From positions 1 to 26,534 of IMG/VR virus record IMGVR_UViG_3300030376_004534: DNA of 26,534 nt. The stretch is one strand, 5' to 3'. This stretch comes from a virus (lineage: Duplodnaviria > Caudoviricetes). A program made the translations under genes and the position numbers. This document shows, piece by piece, positions 261 through 23,646 of the stretch (position 1 is its first letter; every line of letters begins with the position of its first letter). Below the pieces are notes generated by a model, which saw only the letters and a list, made by a program, of their open reading frames with translations, did no database searches and was not told the origin of the DNA.

Positions 261-1298
261 CTATACGTTTTTAGATAAACCAATGATTCTTCTGTCACCA
301 GCAGTAGCAGAGTTTCTAACTGCACAACCATAGATAGCATCTACAGTAATTAAGTCAGAAAGTTCTGTGTGTTGGTAAGATTGTTGTACTCTTGGTGATT
401 GAGCAGCAGCATAATATAATGCTGAGTTATGAATACAGAATCCTCTAAGAATGTCATCATTAGTAGAATCATTAGTATCAAAACCAGTCCAAGCAGTTAC
501 GCCTTTGTCTGCATCAGCAGAAACAGCACCTACATCTAAGTATGGAGATTGTGTAACCACAACATTCATTCCTAAAATGTTACCTGCAACACCTGTAGAA
601 GCGAAATCAGCACCTAATGGTCCTGCTGTACCTCTAACAAATCCTGCTGCTGAATCTAAAGCTGCTAAAGAAGCATATAAAGTAGGACTTAAAACCATTG
701 TCCAACCTTCTGTACTTCCTGTTTCAAGAATTACTGCTTTAAATATGTCATCAATATTACCTGCTGCAAGAGCATCGCCTACTTCTAACATATCTACAGT
801 ATCTTGTGTAGCACCTGATGTACCACCGTGAGCTGTAGTTAGATTATCAACTATTTTATACATTAAGTAATTATCAACACCTCTACCTATTGCATAAGCT
901 AATTGGTCAGAATACATATTAAATAAATTGTATGATGACTGAGCTTTTAATGCGTCAGGAATCCATAAAGATGTAACTTTATGTTGGTCTATACTTAATG
1001 AAGTTTCAGTTGCTACCATTGAACCACCTGAAGCTACGTCAGAAGCAATAGGTGTACCTTGTGCAACATCACCTAATGGTGTAACACCAATGTGTGGTAG
1101 GTGTATTTTATCTGCACCAACAGCTTCAGATGATAAATCATTAGCTAAAGGTAACATTACTGTGTTTGTTCTGAATTTATCAAGAATTGCTTGACCCCAT
1201 ACTTCAGGTACAAATTCTTGTCCTACTGAGTCAGCTGCAGCAGCAGATGCACCACCTTGCAGCATATTAATATCTAATGGATCACTTATGTTTGCCAT
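261..1298 (-). CDS. Major capsid protein (HK97 fold, P22-coat/N4-gp56-like)
   Basis: 345 aa; FVPEVWGQAIL N-terminal motif, 'KIHLPHIG', 'LSIDQHK', C-terminal 'DAIYGCAV'; directly downstream of scaffold and followed by a terminator. Confidence 0.88.
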   Translation of the reverse strand: MANISDPLDINMLQGGASAAAADSVGQEFVPEVWGQAILDKFRTNTVMLPLANDLSSEAVGADKIHLPHIGVTPLGDVAQGTPIASDVASGGSMVATETSLSIDQHKVTSLWIPDALKAQSSYNLFNMYSDQLAYAIGRGVDNYLMYKIVDNLTTAHGGTSGATQDTVDMLEVGDALAAGNIDDIFKAVILETGSTEGWTMVLSPTLYASLAALDSAAGFVRGTAGPLGADFASTGVAGNILGMNVVVTQSPYLDVGAVSADADKGVTAWTGFDTNDSTNDDILRGFCIHNSALYYAAAQSPRVQQSYQHTELSDLITVDAIYGCAVRNSATAGDRRIIGLSKNV

Positions 1299-1316
1299 TT
1301 ATAAAACCTTCTCTTT

Positions 1317-1835
1317 CTATTTTTTAGCAAAAGATTTTACGATGTCTTTCCAATTTCTTTCTTTGTCTTGTTTTGACATATTATGCCATTCATCAGACAT
1401 AGGTTTACCTTTAACAGTTGCCCTAACACTAGGTTCTGACGGTGTTTTAGGTTTTAATTGTGACACCATAAACTCTAATACGTCTAAATCTTTATTTTTG
1501 AATTGTTCACGCTGTTCTTCAGGTATAGAAGATAATAACACTTCTTTTCTTTGATTGACTATACTTTCATACTTTTCTTTGTATGGAGATAAAGATTCAA
1601 CTTCGGCTTCAAATTTTTCTGCCAATGTTTTAAATTCTTCTTTTTCTTTAAGTTTAGTGTTTTCTTGTTCTTGAAGTTGTTTTTTAATTTCTGATAACTG
1701 ATTTTCAGCTTCCTGTGCTCTTTTTCTATACTTCTTGCTTTCTGCTATGTACTCATTCTGAGCTGATTCCTGAGTAACATTCTCTGTACCATTATCCACT
1801 ACTGTTTCATTTGATACTACATTTTCTTCGGACAT
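1317..1835 (-). CDS. Capsid scaffolding protein
   Basis: Acidic N-terminus, 'ESKKYRKRAQ' coiled coil, 'EEFKTLAE', short C-terminal helix; strong SD AGGAGG; immediately upstream of the capsid gene. Confidence 0.8.
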   Translation of the reverse strand: MSEENVVSNETVVDNGTENVTQESAQNEYIAESKKYRKRAQEAENQLSEIKKQLQEQENTKLKEKEEFKTLAEKFEAEVESLSPYKEKYESIVNQRKEVLLSSIPEEQREQFKNKDLDVLEFMVSQLKPKTPSEPSVRATVKGKPMSDEWHNMSKQDKERNWKDIVKSFAKK

Positions 1836-1926
1836 ACTGCCCTCCTATATGTTGTGTATTTGTTAATGCAAAATACTATATCTTGCATTTCTCCTACTTC
1901 GTAAGTTAAATTAGAATGGTAGACTT
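1836..1926. promoter_or_regulatory. Divergent control region between scaffold/capsid and terminase operons
   Basis: 91-bp gap between divergent starts; inverted repeat AATGCAA(1865-1871)/TTGCATT(1883-1889); TTGCAT-18-TAAATT facing terL. Confidence 0.5.
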
Positions 1927-3237
1927 ATGCAAGTTTTAAATGATTACAAACAGAAATGGTTTGACTTTTTAGGGTACGAACCTCACGAGGGTCAGAGAAA
2001 GTTGCACTTTCCTACTAAAGAATCTGCAAGGTTTTTTGTTATGGTTTGTGGGAGGCGATTTGGAAAGACGACTGCGAGTGCTATGGAGGCAACCTTTTAT
2101 GCTTCTCAGCCTAATCAGCGTATATGGCTTGTAGGTCTTTCGTATGATAAAGCCGATTTGATGTTCAGAGAAGTATGGGATAAGATGGTAAAAGGACATC
2201 AGAATGACATTATTAAGGCTTCCGAAAAAGAAAGATATATCAAGTTCAAGTGGGGTACTACTGTAGAAGCTAAATCGGCAGATAATCCTGATTCACTTGT
2301 AGGTGAGGGATTAGATCTACTGATAATAGATGAAGCAGCTAAAGTTAGACCTAGAATTTGGGATATGTATTTATCTCCCACATTATCTGATAGAAAAGGT
2401 AAAGCTGTATTTATTTCAACACCAGAAGGGTTTAATTGGTTATATGATTTATTCTTATTGGGAAAAAGTGATGAACTTTGGGAATCTCACCAAGCTCCAT
2501 CTTGGGATAATGGTTTTGCTTTCCCTGAAGGTCAAGACGACAGGTTTCTTATTGAAAGAAAGCGTAATATGGCTAAAGAGCTATATGACCAAGAGTATGG
2601 AGCACAATTTACATCGTTTGAAGGTAGGGTTTATCCTTTTGATAGGAATATTGATGTCGGCTACTATCCTTATAACCCACATCTTCCTACTTTTTGTAGT
2701 ATTGATTTTGGGTACAGGATGCCTTCTGTGGGATGGTATCAAACCTACAGAGTAAATGGTGAATGGCATATAAATATGATAGACGAGATAATACACGAAA
2801 CAAACATTAAGACAGACGAATTAGCACAAAGAATTAGAAGTAAAAAATATAATGTTATGAGATATTATGGTGACCCAGCAGGGTTACAAGCACAAGGACA
2901 GTCAGGCGTAGGAGATATAGAAATTTTTAGAAAAATGGGTATAGCAGTAAACACAATAACAGATAAAGCATCAAGAAGCATAACAGCAGGTGTTAATCAC
3001 GTTAGAAGTTTTGTAGAAAACGCCAATGGCGAAAGATACCTACACCTAAACAACAACTGTATAGGTATGGCAGAAGATTTAGAAAGTTACAGGTACCCAG
3101 AGGCTCAAGATAGTAAGCCGTTAAAACAAGAACCATTAAAAGATGGTTACCACGACCACGGATGTGACCAATTAAGATATTTTTTTATTAACCATTTTCC
3201 AATTAAAAACAGACAAATAAAGGTAAGGAACAGATGA
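1927..3237 (+). CDS. terL: Terminase large subunit
   Basis: PHEGQ Q-motif, Walker A CGRRFGKT, Walker B LLIIDEAA, 'FISTPEG' motif III, nuclease 'IDFG' and 'DHGCDQLRY'. Confidence 0.96.
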   Translation: MQVLNDYKQKWFDFLGYEPHEGQRKLHFPTKESARFFVMVCGRRFGKTTASAMEATFYASQPNQRIWLVGLSYDKADLMFREVWDKMVKGHQNDIIKASEKERYIKFKWGTTVEAKSADNPDSLVGEGLDLLIIDEAAKVRPRIWDMYLSPTLSDRKGKAVFISTPEGFNWLYDLFLLGKSDELWESHQAPSWDNGFAFPEGQDDRFLIERKRNMAKELYDQEYGAQFTSFEGRVYPFDRNIDVGYYPYNPHLPTFCSIDFGYRMPSVGWYQTYRVNGEWHINMIDEIIHETNIKTDELAQRIRSKKYNVMRYYGDPAGLQAQGQSGVGDIEIFRKMGIAVNTITDKASRSITAGVNHVRSFVENANGERYLHLNNNCIGMAEDLESYRYPEAQDSKPLKQEPLKDGYHDHGCDQLRYFFINHFPIKNRQIKVRNR

Positions 3238-4514
3238 TATACGAAGAAACAGATATAATACAAGAAAGTTTAAAAGAATTAAAAGTCTATAATTACAAAC
3301 AAAGAGAAAATTATGTTAATAAATTATTAGATTATTACAATGGTAATGATACTGCAAATTATATAGCTTCCAAGTTTGATTTAGAAGCATTTAGAGAAGT
3401 TCCTCCGTATGAAGCAAATATTACCAAAAAATTTATAAATAAAATGTCAAGAGTATATACTATTGGTGCTAGTAGAAATGTTAATGAAAAATATGATAGT
3501 TTTTCTGTTTTAAAAGATTCAAAAATGAAACATATAGAAAGAATGACACGTTTAATTGGAACAATAGCTACTAGAATTATGTATGTTGATGGAGAAATGC
3601 CTTACTTTGATTATCAACCAATATATTATTTTCATCCTTTCTTTGCTGATGACCCATTTAAACCTGTTGCAATATCTTATCCTTTAATGAATTATGTAGA
3701 TGATTCTAGTAATTCAGATAAATTACAATATATACATTGGAATGATATAGAATATGTTATATTTGATGAAGAAGGTAATATTTTAGAACAAAAAGAACAC
3801 GGATATGGCGTTTTACCATTTGCATTTACACACAGAGAACATCAATGTGATTCTTTTTATGTAGAAGGTGCAAATGACATAATGAACGCTAACGAACACA
3901 TAAATATCACAATGACAGAAATGCAGCTAGGTTTAAGATTTCAAATGTTTGGACAACCTGTAGTTTCAGGAGCAGATTTAGGAAATAGACAAAGATTTGG
4001 CTCAGATGTTATATTAGAACTGCCAGATGGTGCAAATTATGATATAAAATCGCCATCAGGTGATATTAACAAGGTTATAGAAAATGTTAAGTTCCAAATG
4101 GAGCTTGTAGCACAAAATAACCACTTATCTGTACAGTTTGCACAAGATGGTGGCGAAACTCCTAGTGGTATAGCCTTAAAAATTAAGGATTTAGAGAGTT
4201 TTGAAGATTATCAAGATGATTTAGAGCTTTGGAAACGATATGAGCACGAAATGTACCAAATTGAACGTAAAATAGCTAGTGTATTAAACATTAGTATGCC
4301 AGACACATTAAAATTAGACTTTAATGAGCCTGATTACCCAATGACAGTACAAGACCAGATAGCACTAGACAATCATAGGCTATCACTAGGATTAATGAGT
4401 AAAGCCGAACTAATGGTTGAATACAATAAAGACTTAACTATAGAAGAAGCAAATGCTAAACTAACTGCAAACCAAGCACTAATAGAGCCTGAAGATGATA
4501 GAAGTCAAGTATAA
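3234..4514 (+). CDS. Portal protein (SPP1 gp6-like)
   Basis: 426 aa overlapping the terL stop (ATGA); 'LDYYNG', 'HGYGVLPF', 'SGIALKIK', 'LDFNEP' motifs typical of SPP1-type portals. Confidence 0.88.
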   Translation: MIYEETDIIQESLKELKVYNYKQRENYVNKLLDYYNGNDTANYIASKFDLEAFREVPPYEANITKKFINKMSRVYTIGASRNVNEKYDSFSVLKDSKMKHIERMTRLIGTIATRIMYVDGEMPYFDYQPIYYFHPFFADDPFKPVAISYPLMNYVDDSSNSDKLQYIHWNDIEYVIFDEEGNILEQKEHGYGVLPFAFTHREHQCDSFYVEGANDIMNANEHINITMTEMQLGLRFQMFGQPVVSGADLGNRQRFGSDVILELPDGANYDIKSPSGDINKVIENVKFQMELVAQNNHLSVQFAQDGGETPSGIALKIKDLESFEDYQDDLELWKRYEHEMYQIERKIASVLNISMPDTLKLDFNEPDYPMTVQDQIALDNHRLSLGLMSKAELMVEYNKDLTIEEANAKLTANQALIEPEDDRSQV

Positions 4515-4959
4515 TATTGATTTTAAAAAAGCTCTTAAAGAGTTAGAAAAAGATAAGCTATCAGAAACTTTAAATGAAGGCGTTGCAGATAAATTTGCTA
4601 AAAATTCAACAAAATTCATAAAAGCAGGTAAAGTAGAGCCTGAATTATCAGATAAAAACCCAAGAGGTGTAGATGCACCACCATTATTTGATACTGGTAA
4701 ACTTGCAAAAAGTTTAAAAGGTAGCTCAAAAGGTATTAGTGGTGTTACTTATGGTAAAAAACATTACCAAAAAGATGGATATACTTGGAAGAAAAAAGTT
4801 TTTTTAAGAGGCAAAGAAAAGACACTTAATCTAAAAGTTCCACAAAGAAAGTTTATAAGTGCAGATTATCCAAGTGAAAAGTCGGCAAATAACAAAATTT
4901 ACAAGGAATTTCAGAAAAAATTCGTTAACTTACTAAGTAAACGTATAAGGAAACGATAA
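4495..4959 (+). CDS. Virion morphogenesis / neck-type protein (Mu gpG / HK97 gp10-like)
   Basis: Basic protein with 'PLFDTGKLAKSL', 'YGKKH' and 'VPQRKFI' motifs. Confidence 0.6.
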   Translation: MIEVKYNIDFKKALKELEKDKLSETLNEGVADKFAKNSTKFIKAGKVEPELSDKNPRGVDAPPLFDTGKLAKSLKGSSKGISGVTYGKKHYQKDGYTWKKKVFLRGKEKTLNLKVPQRKFISADYPSEKSANNKIYKEFQKKFVNLLSKRIRKR

Positions 4960-5192
4960 TGAAAAATTCTGAAGCCGAAGCAATAGAAATCCTACTAAGA
5001 AACGTAATCAATATGCACGAAAAATTAAACATACTAATAGATTACTTAGCTAAAGATATAGAACAAGACGATAAATACGAAAGAGAATTTTACAAAGACG
5101 AAGATATGTTAGTGCAAATAGAAAAAGACACATACAAACAAATGTGCGATTTAATGGAAGATAACACAATACCCTTTATGGGAATAGCTTAG
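4959..5192 (+). CDS. Hypothetical acidic protein
   Basis: 77 aa, TAATG coupling, SD AAGGA. Confidence 0.6.
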   Translation: MKNSEAEAIEILLRNVINMHEKLNILIDYLAKDIEQDDKYEREFYKDEDMLVQIEKDTYKQMCDLMEDNTIPFMGIA

Positions 5193-5201
5193 TGGAGAAA
5201 A

Positions 5202-5510
5202 ATGGATATTTTAGCGATTATGGAACAGTTTGGAATACCAGTTACGATGACGATAGCGTTCGGATTTTTTATATGGAGGCAGAACAAGTTTATACAGGAA
5301 ACTCTAATGACAGAGTTAGATCAAGACTTCAAGAGGTTGGAAGGTATTATTATCAAACTAATCGACCAACAGAAGAAAGTACAAATGGAGCAAAAGAAAC
5401 TAAACGGAATCTTTAAAGCTCAAGTAGAAATAATCGCAAGACTATCAGGTAACGGATTAAAAGACAAATTTTTAAGAATTATGGAACAAGGTGGTATGAA
5501 AGATGACTAA
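5202..5510 (+). CDS. Single-TM membrane protein with coiled coil; holin-like (BhlA-type topology)
   Basis: GGAG SD; N-terminal 'FGIPVTMTIAFGFFIW' hydrophobic helix followed by a heptad-rich tail. Confidence 0.55.
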   Translation: MDILAIMEQFGIPVTMTIAFGFFIWRQNKFIQETLMTELDQDFKRLEGIIIKLIDQQKKVQMEQKKLNGIFKAQVEIIARLSGNGLKDKFLRIMEQGGMKDD

Positions 5511-5655
5511 ACAAACAAAAAAACTAACAATAGTAACTCCTATGGGTAGTCTTGAAAGTGATTCAGGTAGTCATTTTGTAGATGTTATAACAGTTCTTGG
5601 TTCTGTCTTGGCGATAATGATACTTAAAAAGCTAGTAAGTAAATACGTTAAGTAG
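5503..5655 (+). CDS. Small membrane protein (50 aa)
   Basis: Manual translation MTKQTKKLTIVTPMGSLESDSGSHFVDVITVLGSVLAIMILKKLVSKYVK; C-terminal TM helix; overlaps the previous stop. Confidence 0.55.
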   Translation: MTKQTKKLTIVTPMGSLESDSGSHFVDVITVLGSVLAIMILKKLVSKYVK

Positions 5656-6286
5656 ATTCCTCAGCAGCAACAATAGATTCTTCCCACTCTTTTCTTTGAC
5701 CTTTAGTAGGGCGTTTAGCACTTAATGGTTTAATACCTACAGCTTTAGCTCTTTTCTTCCAACGATACCATTCCTTACGCATATCATTACGAGTTTTCTT
5801 CTTGTTGTCGTATCTATCCTTTTCTATCTCACTCTTTAACGCTACCTTTTCTTGTTTAACAGTCTTAGAAGGCTTTCTTTCAGGTAAGTCCTCTGGTATC
5901 GCCACATCATCAAATACCTCAACAATCTCTGCATCTTGTATATCATCAGACTTAAGAAACTTCTCAAAAGGACTATCAATGGTAATATTTACGTTTTTAA
6001 CGAGTTTTCCACTATGCTCTAGTACTAACCTAGCAGCTTGTACATTACCGTGTTTAGCTTCCCTTACCATAGCATTAATAACAGCAGGTAACTGTGAGCC
6101 AAACTCAGTCATATACCTTTCATAAATCTTATCTATAAACATAGGATCTTGTCGCCATTTAGCTACACATATATCAGATACACCTACTTTAGAGGCAACT
6201 TCTTTAACTGTAATAGCAGGATTTAGTGCGAAAAGCTCTATCGCTAGTACTTTGTGGGGTTTTCTTTGTGCTGGTGTCGTCTGCAT
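5648..6286 (-). CDS. terS: Terminase small subunit-like HTH protein
   Basis: N-terminal HTH (TVKEVASKVGVSDICVAKWRQDPMF), 'REAKHGNVQAARLVLE' oligomerisation motif, basic C-terminal tail; GGAG SD. Confidence 0.7.
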   Translation of the reverse strand: MQTTPAQRKPHKVLAIELFALNPAITVKEVASKVGVSDICVAKWRQDPMFIDKIYERYMTEFGSQLPAVINAMVREAKHGNVQAARLVLEHSGKLVKNVNITIDSPFEKFLKSDDIQDAEIVEVFDDVAIPEDLPERKPSKTVKQEKVALKSEIEKDRYDNKKKTRNDMRKEWYRWKKRAKAVGIKPLSAKRPTKGQRKEWEESIVAAEEST

Positions 6287-15313: not shown

Positions 15314-15647
15314 AATAAAACAAGGAAAACTTACTTTAGATGATAATCTTGGATTTAGGGATTATTTAAGGCTAATTGAGGGTGATGTTCACTTAGAAAT
15401 AAAACCTGCCGAAAAGGTGCGTTCTCCACAACAAAACGCATACTATAGGGTTATTATAAGGTTGTTAGCTAAAGATTTAGGTTATACTGAAGCCGAAATG
15501 CACAATGTTATAAAAGAAAAGTATGAAATTGAATCCACTAAACAATTATCTGTTCCAGAGTTTACTGAACTTATCGAAGAAATAAAAAGATGGGCAGTAA
15601 TAGAAATGGGTATTGTTCTGCCGAACGCTAAGCAATCTCATCAATAG
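15297..15647 (+). CDS. NinB/Orf-like recombination protein
   Basis: 'RSPQQNAYY', 'STKQLSVPEFTELIEEIKRWA...GIVLP'. Confidence 0.75.
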   Translation: MKFAGKIKQGKLTLDDNLGFRDYLRLIEGDVHLEIKPAEKVRSPQQNAYYRVIIRLLAKDLGYTEAEMHNVIKEKYEIESTKQLSVPEFTELIEEIKRWAVIEMGIVLPNAKQSHQ

Positions 15648-16689
15648 TCATACTCACACTATAAGTATTAAAAGCTACTTGATTTACATTAAAACTATTT
15701 TCCCTAAATGTGCATATAGAAAATTGGTCAGGATTGTTATTGGTATTATCAGGTTGAAATATAAACGGCAGAGTACCACCTAATGTACAATTCCATACAA
15801 AATTAAAACTATCATCTGAAAGCATAGGGTTAGGTATCTCATTATTTGGGGTAACATTATCTGAAGTTAATGTATTAGACACTTCATTTTCCATCCACAT
15901 ATCACTTTCAGAAATATAAGAAAATGTAAGATTCCAGCTTCTTAATCCTTTTCTTCCTAAACCACTTTTAACTTTCTGATTAAAGTCATCGCCTGTAGTA
16001 TCAAGTTCAAATGGTGGGTATTTATAAGTTCCATCATTAGGGTGGTTCATAGTCCACTCTGTTGGTCCATCATAATAAATGTTAGCTAATGTTTTGCCAC
16101 CTATGGTTTTTTGTTTCTTAATACCATCAAATCGTCTTGACATTGTTAAACTAAGGTCTGGCGAATTAGGAGCATCCCAATACTTACCTACCACAAAAGA
16201 ACCAAGTTGATGATTAATTGTGTCAGTATAATCACTTGCATACTCAACCTTAAACATAGTCCAATATTCATTATTTGAACCGACCTCAAAAATAGTTGTT
16301 CCATTAAATAGAGGGTTTAGTGTGTTGGCTGACCTGTCGGCATTTAAAATTTGTGATTTAAAATGATTGTTGTGTGAAAAATTTGTGTAATCTAGATTAA
16401 TTCCATCGTAGCCTACTATTTGTGGAGTTGAATCATCACTTGCTAAGTTGTGATTTAGTAAAGCAATAAAATTAACAGGAAAAGATGTTTTCGCTGGATT
16501 ATCATCACCTGAACCACCAATCACAAAAATTGAATCTTCATCAATACTATCTCTTATAAAAGGATTAGATGGGTTCATATACAGAAGTTCTGCACCACCT
16601 TTAGTTGTATCCCAGCCTAATTGTCCTGTGGCGTGTAAAAATGTAGGCATATCTACATAAAATCTTGGCGTTTTAACTTGTTTTCCCAT
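15628..16689 (-). CDS. Tail-tip protein, distal tail (Dit)-like
   Basis: Last gene of the tail operon; 'RSWNLTFSYI', 'GGTLPFIFQPD', C-terminal 'YSVSMTIDE' strand typical of Dit/tube-fold proteins. Confidence 0.55.
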   Translation of the reverse strand: MGKQVKTPRFYVDMPTFLHATGQLGWDTTKGGAELLYMNPSNPFIRDSIDEDSIFVIGGSGDDNPAKTSFPVNFIALLNHNLASDDSTPQIVGYDGINLDYTNFSHNNHFKSQILNADRSANTLNPLFNGTTIFEVGSNNEYWTMFKVEYASDYTDTINHQLGSFVVGKYWDAPNSPDLSLTMSRRFDGIKKQKTIGGKTLANIYYDGPTEWTMNHPNDGTYKYPPFELDTTGDDFNQKVKSGLGRKGLRSWNLTFSYISESDMWMENEVSNTLTSDNVTPNNEIPNPMLSDDSFNFVWNCTLGGTLPFIFQPDNTNNNPDQFSICTFRENSFNVNQVAFNTYSVSMTIDEIA

Positions 16690-17228
16690 TAATATCCTCC
16701 TGAACTACCACCACTTGTAGATGTTGGTTTTTTTCGTTTTATTTTTTTAATTTTTGTTTTATCTACTTCAGGTAAACCATAATCAGGTAGATTGTATTTA
16801 GTTTTATTGATAATGCCTTTTTTAGATTTATCTTTAAAGTTTTCCCAAGTAACACCTTCTACATTCATTGACCAATCTTGATTTTCCCACTTTGGTTTTA
16901 CTTTTATAATATTTGTTGGAACTTTTTTAGCTTCTATATCTGCAACAATAACACTTTTAATTTCAACTAATCCTTCATAAGTAAATAATTCTGTTTTTTC
17001 TATAGGTATTTGTTGTAATGTAAATATGATTATTTTACTATTACTACCTTGTAAAAACCAACCTTCAGGTAATTGTGGCGTTATTTTTGCTTTACCAGTA
17101 TAATTAATCTCTATACCCATAATACCTATATTAGAATCTATAGAGCAAGAACCATCATTACATATTATGTTAGCACTACCTTCTGATATTTTAACTTTAT
17201 TTTTTTCGTTTATTTCTGATAATTTCAT
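16689..17228 (-). CDS. Cohesin-like beta-sandwich protein
   Basis: 'IMGIEINY...LPEGW......KIIIFTL...I....LFTYEG..EIKSVIVAD' resembles a cohesin strand pattern; TAATG-coupled to the dockerin-bearing gene. CDS is solid; the fold call is by eye. Confidence 0.55.
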   Translation of the reverse strand: MKLSEINEKNKVKISEGSANIICNDGSCSIDSNIGIMGIEINYTGKAKITPQLPEGWFLQGSNSKIIIFTLQQIPIEKTELFTYEGLVEIKSVIVADIEAKKVPTNIIKVKPKWENQDWSMNVEGVTWENFKDKSKKGIINKTKYNLPDYGLPEVDKTKIKKIKRKKPTSTSGGSSGGY

Positions 17229-17407
17229 TATTGATTTCCTAAAATTGACTGTACTGTTGCTACAACATCTTGTACATTTATTATACCATCATCATTAACA
17301 TCTCCAGCTGAAAATTGTGCATCTGATAAATCTGTTAAACCTAATATAAATTGAACCATAGCAACTATATCTAAAACATTAACTACTTGGTCGCCTGTAA
17401 TGTCACC
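17228..17407 (-). other. Dockerin (type I-like) domain
   Basis: GDITGDQVVNVLDIVAMVQFIL ... AGDVNDDGIINVQDVVATVQSIL: duplicated D-x-N/T-x-D-G-x-x-N-x-x-D Ca-binding loop plus helix. Confidence 0.92.
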
Positions 17408-20400
17408 TTGTGCTAAAAAAGGTATAAAACTAAAATCTAAATACTTTGTATCTGCTAAATCGTTATAAATATCTACTTGCATAGTAAAGTGTATTTCAAA
17501 TGTAAAACCATCATATTGTTCTGCTAATTCTAAACTATTTTCTATTGCATTAGTTAATGTTACTGAGCCACCATAATTATCATCATTTTGTATTATAGTT
17601 TCATTAAATATATAATTTTGTATCTGAGGCATTTCACCTATTTCCCAAGTTCCATTTTCATAAGTAGAACTCGTATTTCCGTGTTCTAAATCTACAGTTC
17701 CAGCAGGAACATTAACTTCCCTCAACCAATAGTTTACATCAATATCACCTTGAATGTCAGTATCTATAATAGCAGTTAATGCTTCTGTTGCAAAATTAGT
17801 ACCTGTTGCCCAATTAACATTTAATATAGTTTCTGTATCAACTTCAGGTTCATATATATCTTGGTCATAAGGGTTTGGTATAATATAATTAGAAGCCATT
17901 TCATCATCAAAACCAAGTTCACCTCTATGTATTTGTACTGCTTCTATACTTACTTTATCTAAAGACTTTGTTATTTTATTTACAAAGAATATTGGATATA
18001 CTGGTTGCCCATTCTTAATAATCTCTTGTGTATAATCTTGACCAAACGCAAGTTTACCACCTATAAGTTCATCAAACCTTATTGTATCTCCTATTTCAAG
18101 ATTCATATAACTTGGAGGTAAATCTATTTTAGCTATAAGATGTTGATTACAATGCCACATTAATAGTTTTCTTTGTAGTTTTCTTGCAGTTAATTCATCT
18201 CTAATATATTCACTTTCAAATTCTAATTTAGCATCTTCTGATTTTAAGCCGTAGTAATTAATATCATAATTATTATCAGAACCTTCAAATGCCGAAGTAA
18301 CATCTTCTAATGTAGGTCTAATTGTACCATTATTATCTGTAATACCATATCCTGTTTCTTCTAAATAATCTCCTGACCCATAATCTTTTTTATACTTTAC
18401 ATTTACTTGGTTTTTAACATCATCTAATTTAGTTAAAGAAAATGAATACTTAATTATATCTTCATTATTAATAATAGGATACTGTGTAAAGTCTGTTTCT
18501 TTATCAACCATATACAAGAATTTAAATTCGCCTTTACTATTAAAAGAAGGTATATAAACTGACGATTTAAACAATCCTTCTACAAAAGATTTAGCTTCTT
18601 TTTGTTCATTAAGAGTAAAACTTTGAATCCAATTATCTTCTATGTCTACATCAGGCAATTCTACATTACCCTCATAATTAAGTTCGTTTTTAAGTATATC
18701 TGCTAATATAAATTGTGGTTTAGCTATAGGTTCGCCTGAACCATCTATTCTACCTACAATACTTGCAAAATAATCTTGATTATATATATCAGTAATTAAA
18801 CAATCTTGTAATGTGTAAAAGTTATTAAGGTTAGCCATAACTGAAGAAACTTGTTGCTGACTACCTCCTTGACTTTTAATTAAAGGCATACCCCATTGAA
18901 TGCTGTCATAAGCATTAGTTGTGCCGAAACCTATAATAACATTATCATAATCAGTACCAGCTATACCATTTAAATTAGTATTAGAAGTTTCATATCTTCT
19001 TTCTGATTCATTTATATGAAAAGAATGTTCCTGATTAGGAACTTGACACTCTGTAACCCAATCTTCTGTATCGTAATATTTGTGCCAATTATTATTGTCA
19101 TTATCCATATCATCAAATTCATAGTTGTTTTCTTTATCTGCATTTAATAATTGTTTTTCAACCCAAAAACTTACTGGTTGATACCTTAGTCTTGAAGATA
19201 AATATATATCATCATCTTGGTAATCTATTGTATAATGTTCATTTTGTGGAGTTGTATATTGTATATGATAAAGTATTTTAGTTACACAAGAATAATCGCC
19301 TATGTCTTTGTTTAATTCTAATCTTGCATAAGCTCCACCACTTTCAGGGTGACTTGTTCTTATTTGTGAGTTTATATGCAAACCTGTATCATTACGATTA
19401 TTTTGTATTAAGTCTACATTAAAATTACCATCATAACCTGCATTAACGTGATTTTGGTCAATAGTTTCTCTAAATTCACCTTCTTGTGTTACATTATCAT
19501 TAATGTTTGTAGCTTTCCACCAAGTTTTATCGCCTGTATCCCAATTTTCATCATATTTACTATCTAAATCAGAATTATCATTATCATCACCTAAAACATT
19601 AACCACTTTAGTAATATTGTCTAATCTATCATTTGTATAACCATAAAACTTATTAGATGACCTTACAAAAGTATAATCATCTTCACCTGAAATAGTTGAT
19701 TTTCCGTGATTTTTTGCATAAAAAGATACTTTTTCTACAGGTCTATATATTCTTGTAGGTAAACCTATTTCTCCTGTTCCTACTAATACATCTTCTTCTT
19801 CTGTATATGATTCATATAAAAATGAATTTTCATTAAGGTTAAATTTAGCACTACCATTTGCATTAGCATTTTCAAAAGTATATATATTTGTTTCTAAATT
19901 AGGATACTCTCTTGAACCAAATTTTTTTGCTAATTCTTCCATAATAGGCATATAACCATCATTATATACAGATAGACTTGCATTTTCATTTAACCAATTA
20001 TGAACTATTAAAACGTGTTGGCTGTCTATGTATGGATTTTTAAATGATATTTTATTTGCAGCGTTCCATACATTAAATAATTCTTCATTAGGTTTATCTA
20101 ATTCTATGTCGTTTAATTTGTTTATAACTGTTGGACTTTTGTCTACATATCCATATACCATAGGGTAAGGTTGTCCAATTTGTTCTTCACTATACAAATC
20201 TTCATTTTGTAATGTAGTAGATGGTATTTGTGTTGCTAATTTTTGTTGTGTTAAATCCTCTAAAGTAAGGCTTAAAGTTTCTGCCGACTGTGAATAACGT
20301 CTAATAGTGCCAGTATAGACAAGTAAACAATCATCTAAGGTATCTATACCATTAGAAGCATAATATACCTGTACAACAGCATTTAATAAAGATTGTACAT

Positions 20401-20698
20401 CATCACTAAATATCTTGCCGTTATATTGATTGTTAGATATAGATAAAGATACACTTGATATAGTGTATTTTGAATTTATAATGTCGGCAGACGACTTGAT
20501 AGAAGGACTATTAAGTAGTAAAGGGTTATACGCCTCACCACCTATGTTTGTTTCCTTAATTGATAAATTAATTACTTCTGTTGCCGAATCTAATGGGTCA
20601 TCTATCTGTACACCTTTATATATCCTAACCAAAGGATATAAAGATGTTCTTACACCATTACCTAATGCTTGTTTAAACTTTGGAGGTAACGTCAGCAT
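17228..20698 (-). CDS. Tail hub/tip protein (Tal-like) with C-terminal dockerin
   Basis: 1156 aa after the tape measure; hub motifs 'YTGTIRR', 'PMVYG', 'NQVNVKY', 'NLEIGDTIRF'; residues 1098-1156 form a two-repeat dockerin. Confidence 0.8.
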   Translation of the reverse strand: MLTLPPKFKQALGNGVRTSLYPLVRIYKGVQIDDPLDSATEVINLSIKETNIGGEAYNPLLLNSPSIKSSADIINSKYTISSVSLSISNNQYNGKIFSDDVQSLLNAVVQVYYASNGIDTLDDCLLVYTGTIRRYSQSAETLSLTLEDLTQQKLATQIPSTTLQNEDLYSEEQIGQPYPMVYGYVDKSPTVINKLNDIELDKPNEELFNVWNAANKISFKNPYIDSQHVLIVHNWLNENASLSVYNDGYMPIMEELAKKFGSREYPNLETNIYTFENANANGSAKFNLNENSFLYESYTEEEDVLVGTGEIGLPTRIYRPVEKVSFYAKNHGKSTISGEDDYTFVRSSNKFYGYTNDRLDNITKVVNVLGDDNDNSDLDSKYDENWDTGDKTWWKATNINDNVTQEGEFRETIDQNHVNAGYDGNFNVDLIQNNRNDTGLHINSQIRTSHPESGGAYARLELNKDIGDYSCVTKILYHIQYTTPQNEHYTIDYQDDDIYLSSRLRYQPVSFWVEKQLLNADKENNYEFDDMDNDNNNWHKYYDTEDWVTECQVPNQEHSFHINESERRYETSNTNLNGIAGTDYDNVIIGFGTTNAYDSIQWGMPLIKSQGGSQQQVSSVMANLNNFYTLQDCLITDIYNQDYFASIVGRIDGSGEPIAKPQFILADILKNELNYEGNVELPDVDIEDNWIQSFTLNEQKEAKSFVEGLFKSSVYIPSFNSKGEFKFLYMVDKETDFTQYPIINNEDIIKYSFSLTKLDDVKNQVNVKYKKDYGSGDYLEETGYGITDNNGTIRPTLEDVTSAFEGSDNNYDINYYGLKSEDAKLEFESEYIRDELTARKLQRKLLMWHCNQHLIAKIDLPPSYMNLEIGDTIRFDELIGGKLAFGQDYTQEIIKNGQPVYPIFFVNKITKSLDKVSIEAVQIHRGELGFDDEMASNYIIPNPYDQDIYEPEVDTETILNVNWATGTNFATEALTAIIDTDIQGDIDVNYWLREVNVPAGTVDLEHGNTSSTYENGTWEIGEMPQIQNYIFNETIIQNDDNYGGSVTLTNAIENSLELAEQYDGFTFEIHFTMQVDIYNDLADTKYLDFSFIPFLAQGDITGDQVVNVLDIVAMVQFILGLTDLSDAQFSAGDVNDDGIINVQDVVATVQSILGNQ

Positions 20699-23646
20699 TA
20701 ACCAATCCCAAAATCACTACCCCTACGGACAGCTTCTTTAATTGATTCTGCAAGTTCGCCTTCTACAAAATCTTGCGTCATAACATTACCTGATACGTTT
20801 ACGTTTATATTAGCACCACCACCACCTTGATTCATTTGGTTAAGAGCTTCTAAGCCGATTGATTCTACAGCATTTCTACTCATTACAAACTCGCCACGTT
20901 CTGCCTCTATTAATGTGCCACCTTGAGAATGTCGTCTACCACCTACATAACCACCTTGTTCAAAACTACCATAAACTCCACCACTAGAACCTGAACCTGA
21001 ACCACCTGCTTTTTGTATTTGCTCGTGAATACCTCTTACTTGTGCGTATGCTTTAACATACATAGAAGCAGCAGCAGCTACTCTAAGGGCAGTTGGTTGT
21101 ATTGTTTTATCAGCCATAACATCAGAAGCAGCACTATAAGCGTTAGCAACAGCACTTATTGCTTGGAAATACATTACTTCTTTTTCACTCATACCTATAG
21201 CTTTCCCTAGACCTGCAAAACTATCTGAAATCATACCGATAGTATCTACCTGCTTTAATCTTGCTTTTCTTTCTTTTTCAGCAGAAGCAGCAGCATCTTC
21301 TTGTGAAGTTTCTAATTTATTATATCTTCCTATAAGTAAATCTAAACCTGCAATTTGTTCATCTGTTAGTTCACCTGATTCAAACAATGCTTCGCCTTGT
21401 GCTATTTGTGCATCTAATAAAGCTAATTGTGCTTCTTTTGTTTGTCCGTATGATTCTGCTAGAATTTCTTGAATAGTTTTTTCTTTTTCTGTTGTTTTAG
21501 TACTATCTTTTTTTGTATCGTTCATAGCATCATAAACAACTTGTAATGTTCCTAAAGTCTTTAAAAGGGTTTCTTCTTGTTCTGTTAATTTTCTACCTGC
21601 TTGAATTTCAGCAAGTCTAATTTGTAATGCAGTTCCATCAAGCATAATTTTTGCTTTTAATGTTTCAACTTGTTGATTTAAATTTTTAATATTATCTTCT
21701 AAACTTTGCTTAGCTTTTTCTTCTGCTGCAGCTTGTTGTTTTTGTAATTCAAGCTCATCTTTTTTTAATTGTTGTTGTGTTTCAATTTCTGTTCTTAAAT
21801 TAAATAATGTTTGTAATCTTTCTTTTTCAAGTGGGTCTAATTGTCTACCTAAATCAATTTCCATTAATTTTAAGTCTAACATAAAACCATCTAAATCTCT
21901 TTTAGCTTCTAAAATATCTATTTCTTTTTGTATTGCATCAGTATTTTCTAAAATAGATTTTAGTTTATCACCATCTAGTGCTATATCAAGACCTCTTTCT
22001 TTTGCAAGAAATTCTAGTCTTTGTTGTAATTCTTTTTCTTTTGTTGTTAAACCTGATGTGGCATTTGCCATACCTAAAATAGCAGTAGTTGCACCTATAA
22101 ATAGACTTGTTAATTGTAAAATTACATTTTTCTTATTAGCTTTGTTCAGTTTTAAAGTTGCAGCAGTTAAACCTTGTGTTGCTACTGTATACGCTAAGGT
22201 AACAACTTTTGCAGCACCTAAACCAATATTGTGTAACAACTGTCCTTTTGTAGTTGCTGACAATACTAATCTATAAGCTCCATATCCTGTTGCTAAACCT
22301 AAAGTTGCAGATACAAATGCTTTTAATAAACCTAATGGTATTATATTAGAAAAGAATTTTAGTGCTTTAGCAACTAATAATACAGTTGGTGCTAATGCTT
22401 GTCCTAATCTTTCCTGTAAATCGCCAAAAGCATTTGATGCTTGTGCTAATTGTCCACTTGTTGTCATAGCCATAACTTCTGCTAATTCGCCAAATTTTTC
22501 TTTAACACCCTCAGTTATAGCAGCCATTCTTTCTTGACCTTTAAGACTAGAATCTACTTCAATACCATATCTTGCCAAAGCGTTAGTTGAAGAACCAAAT
22601 GATTTTGAAATTAATAATCCTGCACTATTTAAATCAAGACCTAATCCTGACGCTAAATCTAATGTAGCTTTTGTTAAATCTTTTGCTTGTTGTTCATTAG
22701 CTCCAAAAGCACCCATTGTAGCAATTACTGAATTGATAGCTTCATCACCGAATATGCTAACTTCTTGCATAGCACTAGAAAATTTATCTAATGAATTAGC
22801 AGCATCAACACCAAAAACTCTTGCCATCTTAATGACACTATCTTCTTGTTCAGCAAACATTCTTACTTGCCTTACAATAGCATTAGTAACTAATCCAAAG
22901 GCGAATGATACAAGTAATAACTTAGAACGTATAGTAGCAAAACTATTATCTAACAGTCTACCACTATTAGTAATATTTAACATTCCTTTGTTTAAAGTGT
23001 TTGCTTTTACTCCTGCCAAACTCATAGCTTTTGACATTTGTCCTAAGGCTTTAGTATTACCCTGTAAAGCAAGTTTTACAGTATTTAAATTAATACCTAA
23101 TTTTTTAAATGTAACTCCTGATTGCTTTACAGCAGCAGTCATTTGTTGTATTTGGATTCTAATTAATTTTTGTGATTGTGCTAATTGTTTTTCAGCAAGT
23201 TGTTCTTTTTTGGCTAGTGCAAGAGATTTTTCTCTTTGCTTATTAAGAGCAGCATTTACAGCAGTACGCTGCTTCATATCTTTAATTCTTTGTTTTTCTG
23301 CTGCTTCCTTTTCTGCTAATCTTTTTAAATCTAATTCTGTTTGATGAACATTATTTAATTCCTTAGCATAATCAAGTAATGCTTTTCTTTGTTTATATCT
23401 TGTTCTTACATCTTTTTCAAGAGCAGAATTTGTTTGTTTTCTTTTTGGAAGTTCTGCATCTAATAATCCATTTAACATTTTATTGGATTTATTTAGATGG
23501 TTTTGTGCATCAGATAATTTTTTTGTACTTTTTTGAGTTGATAATATATTCTTATCAAATGTTTTTAAAGCATTAGTAAGATTTTTGATAGTTTGATTTA
23601 ACCCACCATCATCTAATTTAAATTTTATTTCAAAATTATCAGCCAT
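20698..23646 (-). CDS. Tape measure protein
   Basis: 982 aa, helical and Ala/Leu-rich; 'SIFGDEAI', 'DLASGLGLDL', 'NALARYGI', 'GDLQERLG', C-terminal 'GGYVGG...EAERGEFVM...INVNVSG'; follows the chaperone pair. Confidence 0.92.
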   Translation of the reverse strand: MADNFEIKFKLDDGGLNQTIKNLTNALKTFDKNILSTQKSTKKLSDAQNHLNKSNKMLNGLLDAELPKRKQTNSALEKDVRTRYKQRKALLDYAKELNNVHQTELDLKRLAEKEAAEKQRIKDMKQRTAVNAALNKQREKSLALAKKEQLAEKQLAQSQKLIRIQIQQMTAAVKQSGVTFKKLGINLNTVKLALQGNTKALGQMSKAMSLAGVKANTLNKGMLNITNSGRLLDNSFATIRSKLLLVSFAFGLVTNAIVRQVRMFAEQEDSVIKMARVFGVDAANSLDKFSSAMQEVSIFGDEAINSVIATMGAFGANEQQAKDLTKATLDLASGLGLDLNSAGLLISKSFGSSTNALARYGIEVDSSLKGQERMAAITEGVKEKFGELAEVMAMTTSGQLAQASNAFGDLQERLGQALAPTVLLVAKALKFFSNIIPLGLLKAFVSATLGLATGYGAYRLVLSATTKGQLLHNIGLGAAKVVTLAYTVATQGLTAATLKLNKANKKNVILQLTSLFIGATTAILGMANATSGLTTKEKELQQRLEFLAKERGLDIALDGDKLKSILENTDAIQKEIDILEAKRDLDGFMLDLKLMEIDLGRQLDPLEKERLQTLFNLRTEIETQQQLKKDELELQKQQAAAEEKAKQSLEDNIKNLNQQVETLKAKIMLDGTALQIRLAEIQAGRKLTEQEETLLKTLGTLQVVYDAMNDTKKDSTKTTEKEKTIQEILAESYGQTKEAQLALLDAQIAQGEALFESGELTDEQIAGLDLLIGRYNKLETSQEDAAASAEKERKARLKQVDTIGMISDSFAGLGKAIGMSEKEVMYFQAISAVANAYSAASDVMADKTIQPTALRVAAAASMYVKAYAQVRGIHEQIQKAGGSGSGSSGGVYGSFEQGGYVGGRRHSQGGTLIEAERGEFVMSRNAVESIGLEALNQMNQGGGGANINVNVSGNVMTQDFVEGELAESIKEAVRRGSDFGIG

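Follow-up and report, generated by a model that had tools for sequence, protein, structure and literature searches.

Why should the protein at the tip of a phage tail end in a dockerin, and what might the cohesin-like product of the next gene be doing beside it? A sequence-only reading of the window, by which we mean the whole stretch of 26,534 nucleotides analyzed here, had drawn attention to the pair and offered three options: that it attaches a module to the tail tip, that the dockerin binds a cohesin on the host surface, or that the virion recruits dockerin-tagged proteins of the host. The record is a linear virus DNA of 26.5 kb, rated 82% complete, in which PHROG identified genes for a terminase, the major head protein, and the tape measure protein. 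The head genes at 261–6286 are on both strands, with the major head protein and the terminase small subunit on the minus strand and the terminase large subunit and two following genes on the plus strand.

Gene Order in the Tail Module

Four successively overlapping genes on the minus strand encode the tape measure protein (20698–23646; phrog_1533, E 5.6e-6), a 1156-aa protein (17228–20698, with the codon of the last residue at 17231), a 179-aa protein (16689–17228), and a 353-aa protein (15628–16689). The positions of the two middle genes and their TAATG stop/start overlap (17226–17230) had been read correctly, and the overlap likely couples their translation. Among relatives, the stop and start share one base in 27 of 83 loci, and other spacings, in all three phases, occur elsewhere. 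Programmed readthrough or frameshifting that would join the two genes was rejected as a conserved feature, the spacing phases numbering 38/24/21.

By synteny, the 353-aa gene is conserved after the 179-aa gene in relatives. Searches against PDB and PHROG gave its product no identity, and the nearest named Atlas clusters have F5/8 type C in 11–19% of their members; we can only infer that it is distal-tail-like. A gene of this family has in two relatives (L161:6651-8465 and L165:4311-5630) an inserted host-like dockerin of its own, a second plug.

The Predicted Tail Hub Ends in a Dockerin

The 1156-aa protein had no match in PHROG. Its AF2 model (pLDDT 80.8), built on 47 homologues, was closest in Foldseek to T5 pb3 (7zhj_b, E 1e-18), the first eight rows ranging from E 1e-18 to 2e-10, and also matched lambda gpJ and the tail tips of T1, Sf11, JBD30, and Chi. 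Because the model matches T5 pb3, lambda gpJ, and other tail tips, the protein is, on its predicted structure, a siphophage baseplate hub; with T5 pb3, lambda gpJ, and the T1 tip as top matches, the designation "tail hub" in the sequence-only reading was justified. From its family, we expect the hub to be trimeric and to sit at the tip of the virion's tail. The model consists of a BHP/Tal-like core with a variable central insert (residues 1–925; 17924–20698), following the tape measure gene, an all-beta domain assigned by DSSP (approximately residues 957–1091; 17426–17830), and a dockerin with two Ca-loop/helix repeats (residues 1098–1156; 17231–17407), all on the minus strand.

The two Ca-binding dockerin repeats recognized earlier from the letters were borne out by three lines of evidence. 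Residues 1098–1145 matched Pfam Dockerin_1 (PF00404) with 28.4 bits at a cut-off of 22.9, a second scan gave 33.1 bits, and the PDB dockerin 6kg9 was found by sequence with E 7.7e-6. The modeled hub end superimposed on the dockerin 2ccl_B with a TM score of 0.86 by target and rmsd of 1.2 over 59 columns, a value that refers to a predicted model. Both Ca loops are present, starting at D1099 and D1133, with D-T-D-N-D and D-N-D-N-D at the ligand positions. Scored at loop positions 1, 3, 5, 9, and 12 of the two repeats, the Ca ligands were 85–100% conserved in 86 phage pairs picked by their loop pattern, and four Asp were invariant among 48 phage dockerin copies; the ligands are invariant or nearly so although the hubs share only 35–55% identity. 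Dockerins need Ca to fold and fold poorly at cytoplasmic Ca concentrations. The canonical code of Clostridium thermocellum-type cellulosomal dockerins has Ser/Thr at positions 10/11, whereas the window's dockerin has VL and VQ there, and its hydrophobic positions 10/11/14/17 read VL-V-V and VQ-V-V.

The Next Gene Encodes a Predicted Minimal Cohesin

In the AF2 model of the 179-aa protein, residues 11–110 have pLDDT 85–96. All 12 Foldseek matches at E up to 0.001 were cohesins, and so were the first 35 rows of a VIA search, led by a match with Z 10.0 and rmsd 3.6 over 103 aligned residues. A structure search independent of Foldseek placed cohesins in the top 16 of 48,161 chains (Z 8.0–9.9, for the predicted model); the first non-cohesin chain followed at Z 8.0, and the margin is thus approximately 2 Z units. 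By structure only, then, the protein would be a minimal cohesin, a jelly-roll beta-sandwich of approximately residues 13–116 (16881–17192, minus strand), about 40 residues shorter than the solved cohesins. Profiles of Pfam and PDB gave no cohesin match by sequence and PHROG no name, none of 105 phage and host members matched Pfam Cohesin (PF00963) at E up to 0.1, and the sole sequence lead to cohesin was one from the Atlas (0.87). The five strand motifs quoted in the sequence-only reading are all present, and its term "cohesin-like" holds for the predicted fold and finds no counterpart in the sequence searches.

Gly38 (17115–17117) and Glu40 presumably lie on the 8-3-6-5 docking face, at the place of strand 3 in canonical cohesins. 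The domain is followed by a phage-specific extension (16770–16880) that takes the place of the secretion tail in the host cassette described below; it is conserved at W128, G138, T143, Y145, and LP152-153, with W114 just ahead (alignments A1 and A3), and its sequence varies between phage lineages. The protein closes with a Lys/Arg-rich, low-confidence tail ending in GGY (16692–16769), residues 161–179 having pLDDT under 50 and residues 113–179 a net charge of +7. Hydropathy revealed no signal peptide or membrane stretch among 67 homologues. In alignment A7 (the P0161 group), the extension has a conserved Y-x-G-x-F-H-I-H...MTG-x-x-H domain, which may resemble the metal-binding His-x-His tips of spikes. 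GenBank phages yielded no relative of either the hub or the 179-aa protein, and the nine closest viral-structure matches were all proteins without names. A long unnamed viral protein in BFVD (A0A516LNX3, 1389 aa) matched the cohesin model with E 2.5e-8 and is possibly a further hub fusion.

Dockerin and Cohesin Genes Recur Together

The sequence-only reading had staked the pairing on a cohesin fold and on the co-occurrence of the two genes in relatives; the fold is predicted, and the genes do co-occur. The cohesin found 83 non-self loci, with 67 distinct sequences that fall into 26 groups at 80% identity; in every one of these loci, the ORF upstream was a hub ending in dockerin loops. To the cohesin-found loci we added one distant subfamily and two hub-first scans, and retained those distinct loci, 96 in number, in which the hub end was complete and no fewer than 330 bases lay beyond it. 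An intact dockerin was found just upstream of the cohesin gene in 93 of the 96, within the hub in 87 and as a separate gene in 6; the rest were one hub–cohesin fusion and two cohesin genes without a detected dockerin, in L288 and L292, one of these records being rated 100% complete. No dockerin-bearing hub among the 96 lacked a cohesin gene. The 17 loci found only via the hub comprised 11 hub dockerins, 4 separate dockerin genes, no fusion, and 2 loci without a dockerin. Given this recurrence in 93/96 distinct hub loci, the adjacency is not due to chance.

The arrangement of the pair varies. A separate dockerin gene of 186–217 aa stands between hub and cohesin at L162:3493-4056, L169:5441-6001, L284:6646-7299, L286:7336-7989, and L290:7228-7881, and in these split forms it holds the beta-domain region together with the dockerin; the 217-aa type is polar and has an altered code. 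Of eight hub-found loci looked at for a less evident dockerin, five have hubs with an internal, divergent dockerin, a sixth has both loops, and L288 and L292 are the exceptions. In L304, L306, L308, L311, and L312, the dockerin is inside the hub right after the core, with acidic or polar recognition positions, and the partner gene is basic with a much diverged strand pattern. A targeted scan for one divergent subfamily found no members. A further recurrent domain, marked by a Trp/Gly pattern, closes the tail-tip proteins of L292 (5443-7350) and P0281 and the hub ends of L162 and L169; the hubs of several relatives have Cys-rich repeats resembling those of secreted host proteins.

Fusion and Covariation of the Two Halves

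Fusions of hub and cohesin form three clusters at 90% identity with 18, 7, and 9 member sequences and probably represent one event. Both the cohesin domain and the extension are part of the hub polypeptide in this lineage, and the dockerin between hub and cohesin has decayed: its Ca loops are damaged, its recognition residues are lost, its score with the profile of phage dockerins does not exceed 4.5 bits, and a Pfam dockerin match is absent. Such decay is expected if the two proteins are joined by docking, as a covalent link would make the joint redundant. Among 7,997 longer candidates, no fusion belonging to the subfamily of the window was found, which is weak evidence.

The state of the dockerin is mirrored at Gly38 of the cohesin. 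The glycine is kept in all 84 phage pairs with a canonical hydrophobic dockerin (77 from scripted scores and 7 by eye) and lost in all 14 pairs in which the dockerin is altered (9), fused and decayed (3), or absent (2); these 14 pairs correspond to only about three lineages. In host cassettes, it is present in 78 of 82 and is the best-kept cohesin position among those listed. The 14 rows without Gly38 retain L81 (14/14), F82 (9/14), Y84 (12/14), and G86 (13/14), but they are also the most divergent rows, and other positions erode in them as well, I49 being kept in 3/14 and C28 in 6/14. On the tree, the pattern amounts to three changes with one independent pair on well-supported branches and is not significant. 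The loss of Gly38 in the two phages without a dockerin and the three fused ones means that the position tracks the phage's own dockerin, not that of the host.

A Related Cassette in Marinimicrobia

A search with the cohesin profile matched 585 clusters at 50% identity. Among the best 150 of these, 132 were without both a dockerin and a secretion tail and 14 had both; those of the 14 that were scanned had the order passenger, dockerin, cohesin, and T9SS tail, and one was named as a Marinimicrobia T9SS protein. Four of the five strong genome loci were titled Neomarinimicrobiota. In this phylum, the likely host, the cohesin profile matched 60 of 301 genomes, with 7–26 matches in the richest, and the dockerin profile 76 of 151. 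Five genomes (G003, G010, G034, G055, and G022) have 107–194 dockerin candidates each, and all 41 that were scored matched. Judging from sequence, some Marinimicrobia may have a very large dockerin-tagged secretome. Among 113 host cohesins, from loci mostly selected by cohesin, a dockerin comes before 98, a T9SS tail motif comes after 95, and 94 have both neighbors. In loci selected by dockerin, 18 of 30 dockerins are the last element of their protein, followed by neither a cohesin nor a tail, as is the dockerin on the hub.

Taken together, these findings make a split form of the host dockerin–cohesin–T9SS-tail cassette the best reading of the phage pair. This cassette, and not the cellulosome that had served as a model in the sequence-only reading, is the apparent source. 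The whole record has one dockerin and one cohesin, in place of a multi-cohesin scaffoldin with dockerin-bearing glycoside hydrolases, and no hydrolase was found among the 22 ORFs of the window scanned. The family, one of uncultured marine tailed viruses, probably infects Marinimicrobia, and both modules apparently derive from host surface proteins. Among 401 genomes of this phylum, no close prophage was detected; the distant hubs in two of them are the only additional support for such a host. Two prophage-like regions, L317 (G199:C13:1-20000) and L316 (G183:C18), have a short hub relative of 707–709 aa, and no dockerin or cohesin was found in their 20 kb; the head protein of L317 belongs to phrog_267, as in the window.

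The two halves appear to differ in their history. Phage cohesins form one group relative to those of hosts (192 rows, 1 change, SH-aLRT 93), whereas on the dockerin tree (214 rows) phage and host sequences are intermixed, with 18 changes, of which strong branches force only 2. When 80 of these rows were bootstrapped, phage dockerins formed one group in none of 200 trees, the bootstrap being unsettled, and 10 of them nested in a host class with support 97/96. The identity between phage and host dockerins reaches 81%. Although the alignments are short, with 63 columns for the dockerin trees, this suggests that the cohesin was captured once and that the dockerin has been replaced from hosts repeatedly.

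A Proposed Calcium-Dependent Joint at the Tail Tip

We favor, with a probability of roughly 55%, a Ca-dependent joint by which a small accessory protein is tethered at the tip of the tail. The C-terminal dockerin of the hub would bind, with calcium, the predicted cohesin in the product of the next gene and so hold the accessory protein in place. The pair would have been taken from a secreted-protein cassette of Marinimicrobia and split over two genes, with the phage extension replacing the secretion tail. By analogy with T5 pb3 and lambda gpJ, a trimeric hub would display three plugs, and the extension may be a swappable, host-facing payload, Trp-rich and with a basic tail here and represented in relatives by a His-x-His domain or extra domains. 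As dockerins fold only with Ca, locking of the joint may have to await lysis, when the virions reach seawater. Of the three options raised by the sequence-only reading, the attachment of a module to the tail tip is the best supported, through the decay of the dockerin in the fusion lineage and the parallel changes in the dockerin code and at Gly38; the recurrence of the pair in 93/96 loci, the location of the cohesin gene inside the tail module, the lack of a signal peptide or membrane stretch in its homologues, and the variation of the extension between lineages count in the same direction. Against the tether stand the retained host recognition pattern and the apparent re-acquisition of dockerins from hosts, neither of which tethering alone requires, the two cohesin genes without a dockerin, and the second dockerin in the downstream gene of two relatives.

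The leading alternative, which we regard as doubtful, is that the dockerin binds cohesins on T9SS-exported surface proteins of the host. The phage cohesin would then be a cap, shielding the dockerin while virions assemble or the cell lyses and coming off, by displacement or shedding, when the phage meets a cell. The dockerin is at the C-terminus of the hub, where lambda gpJ has its receptor-binding domain, and phage and host dockerins share the pattern at positions 10/11/14/17, with V/I, L, V, and V the commonest residues in both. The mixing of phage and host dockerins on the tree beside a single group of phage cohesins, the abundance of cohesins in the richest host genomes, and the extra dockerin of two relatives all fit, and the covariation of Gly38 is predicted by a cap as well. 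The decay of the dockerin in fusions, however, would abolish host binding, and we favor the tether over a receptor role because fusion comes with decay of both halves. Moreover, nine phage pairs have a code that is not host-like, 98 of the 113 host cohesins already follow a dockerin of their own and may be occupied, and the dockerin trees rest on 63 columns, in which frequent swaps could simply come from recombination, the hosts having dozens of copies. Tethering and capping can be combined as a partner exchange at the cell surface. A self-paired latch written in the host docking code, with host cohesins and dockerins swapping partners and thereby anchoring the virion and uncapping the tip, we put forward only tentatively.

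It is unlikely that the phage cohesin instead catches dockerin-tagged proteins of the host, whether the cohesin is on the virion and serves adsorption, or is free and acts as a decoy or recruits host enzymes. Potential targets are plentiful, with many dockerin-only host proteins (the 18/30 in dockerin-selected loci) and every scored dockerin candidate matching in several genomes, and the cohesin gene persists in two phages without a dockerin. Yet Gly38 is lost in exactly those two phages and in the three fusions, and the docking face is taken when the hub dockerin holds the cohesin. The recruitment of host proteins proposed in the sequence-only reading is therefore disfavored, since the conserved position of the cohesin decays where the phage dockerin is lost or fused.

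We see equally little reason to expect that the 179-aa protein is a non-virion assembly chaperone acting on the hydrophobic dockerin and staying behind in the cell. It has no signal peptide and a disordered basic tail, and translational coupling would suit a one-to-one chaperone; on the other side, the fusion lineage carries the cohesin domain and extension within the hub polypeptide, and a dockerin would fold poorly at cytoplasmic Ca. That both domains are remnants inherited together from a single captured host cassette, with no mutual binding, is very improbable: they are adjacent in the host cassette anyway, and the phage tips here gather other host-like domains too, but the Ca ligands persist across strongly diverged hubs, the pairing outlasts splits, dockerin replacement, and the move of the dockerin inside the hub, and both halves decay together.

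If the tether is true, a cellulosome-type connector serves as a structural joint of virus particles throughout a large family of marine phages. The analysis exposes a predicted cohesin of approximately 100 residues that is missed by Pfam and present in 60/301 sampled genomes of the likely host phylum. It also connects these phages, through their sequences, with Marinimicrobia, which are abundant in the ocean and almost uncultured. As the two small domains can be expressed alone, phage–phage and phage–host binding are testable without culturing either partner, and the lineages with an altered code are natural candidates for orthogonal docking pairs.

Comparison with Known Systems

The tail hubs T5 pb3 and lambda gpJ share with the phage hub the fold predicted for it, the position of the gene after the tape measure gene, a beta domain at the C-terminal end, and a partner gene next in order. 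Their C-termini are FNIII/fibre or LamB-binding regions. The phage hub instead ends in a dockerin and is followed by a cohesin gene in place of a fibre gene.

With the type I pairs of clostridial cellulosomes (PDB 6kgc/6kgf, CaCohA2-Doc0917; 1ohz; 2ccl), the phage pair shares the duplicated Ca-loop/helix dockerin and, in the predicted model, the same beta-sandwich (Z 9.0–10.0 over 97–103 residues). The phage cohesin has approximately 100 residues compared with approximately 140, is 9–15% identical, and goes unseen by Pfam, and the dockerin is hydrophobic at positions 10/11 where the canonical code has Ser/Thr. There is no scaffoldin, cellulase, or CBM, and the genes are part of a phage tail module.

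Full-text literature searches, whose coverage left out most subscription papers, found, among the papers listed, no dockerin–cohesin pair in a virion and no paper on dockerins in Marinimicrobia or on the host cassette. The passages retrieved from one paper infer a cellulosome-like system with non-cellulolytic dockerin-tagged proteins in Ca. Stygibacter (Cloacimonadota), an uncultured aquatic bacterium whose cohesin protein has a C-terminal surface-attachment domain (PMC8542988). Unlike the phage pair, that system is, in those passages, cellular, with a multi-cohesin scaffold and no virus (PMC8542988). In the retrieved parts of three other papers, dockerin/cohesin proteins are described for ANME (PMC9012536), cellular dockerins are the subject (PMC9377139), and a CBM, not a dockerin, is used as template (PMC5967307).

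A further counterpart is the cassette of Marinimicrobia (Marinisomatota), exemplified by NQU67069.1, with a homologous dockerin and mini-cohesin in the same order as in the phage. Profile matches to it have E about 1e-10 to 1e-16, the median best identity is 54–61% for the dockerin, and the median for the mini-cohesin is 33%; Gly38 and the dockerin recognition pattern are shared. The phage differs in using two genes, in having no T9SS CTD or signal peptide, and in its passenger, the tail hub; its fusion lineage, a single polypeptide like the host cassette, is still without the CTD. A known connector would have an apparently undescribed role on a phage tail.
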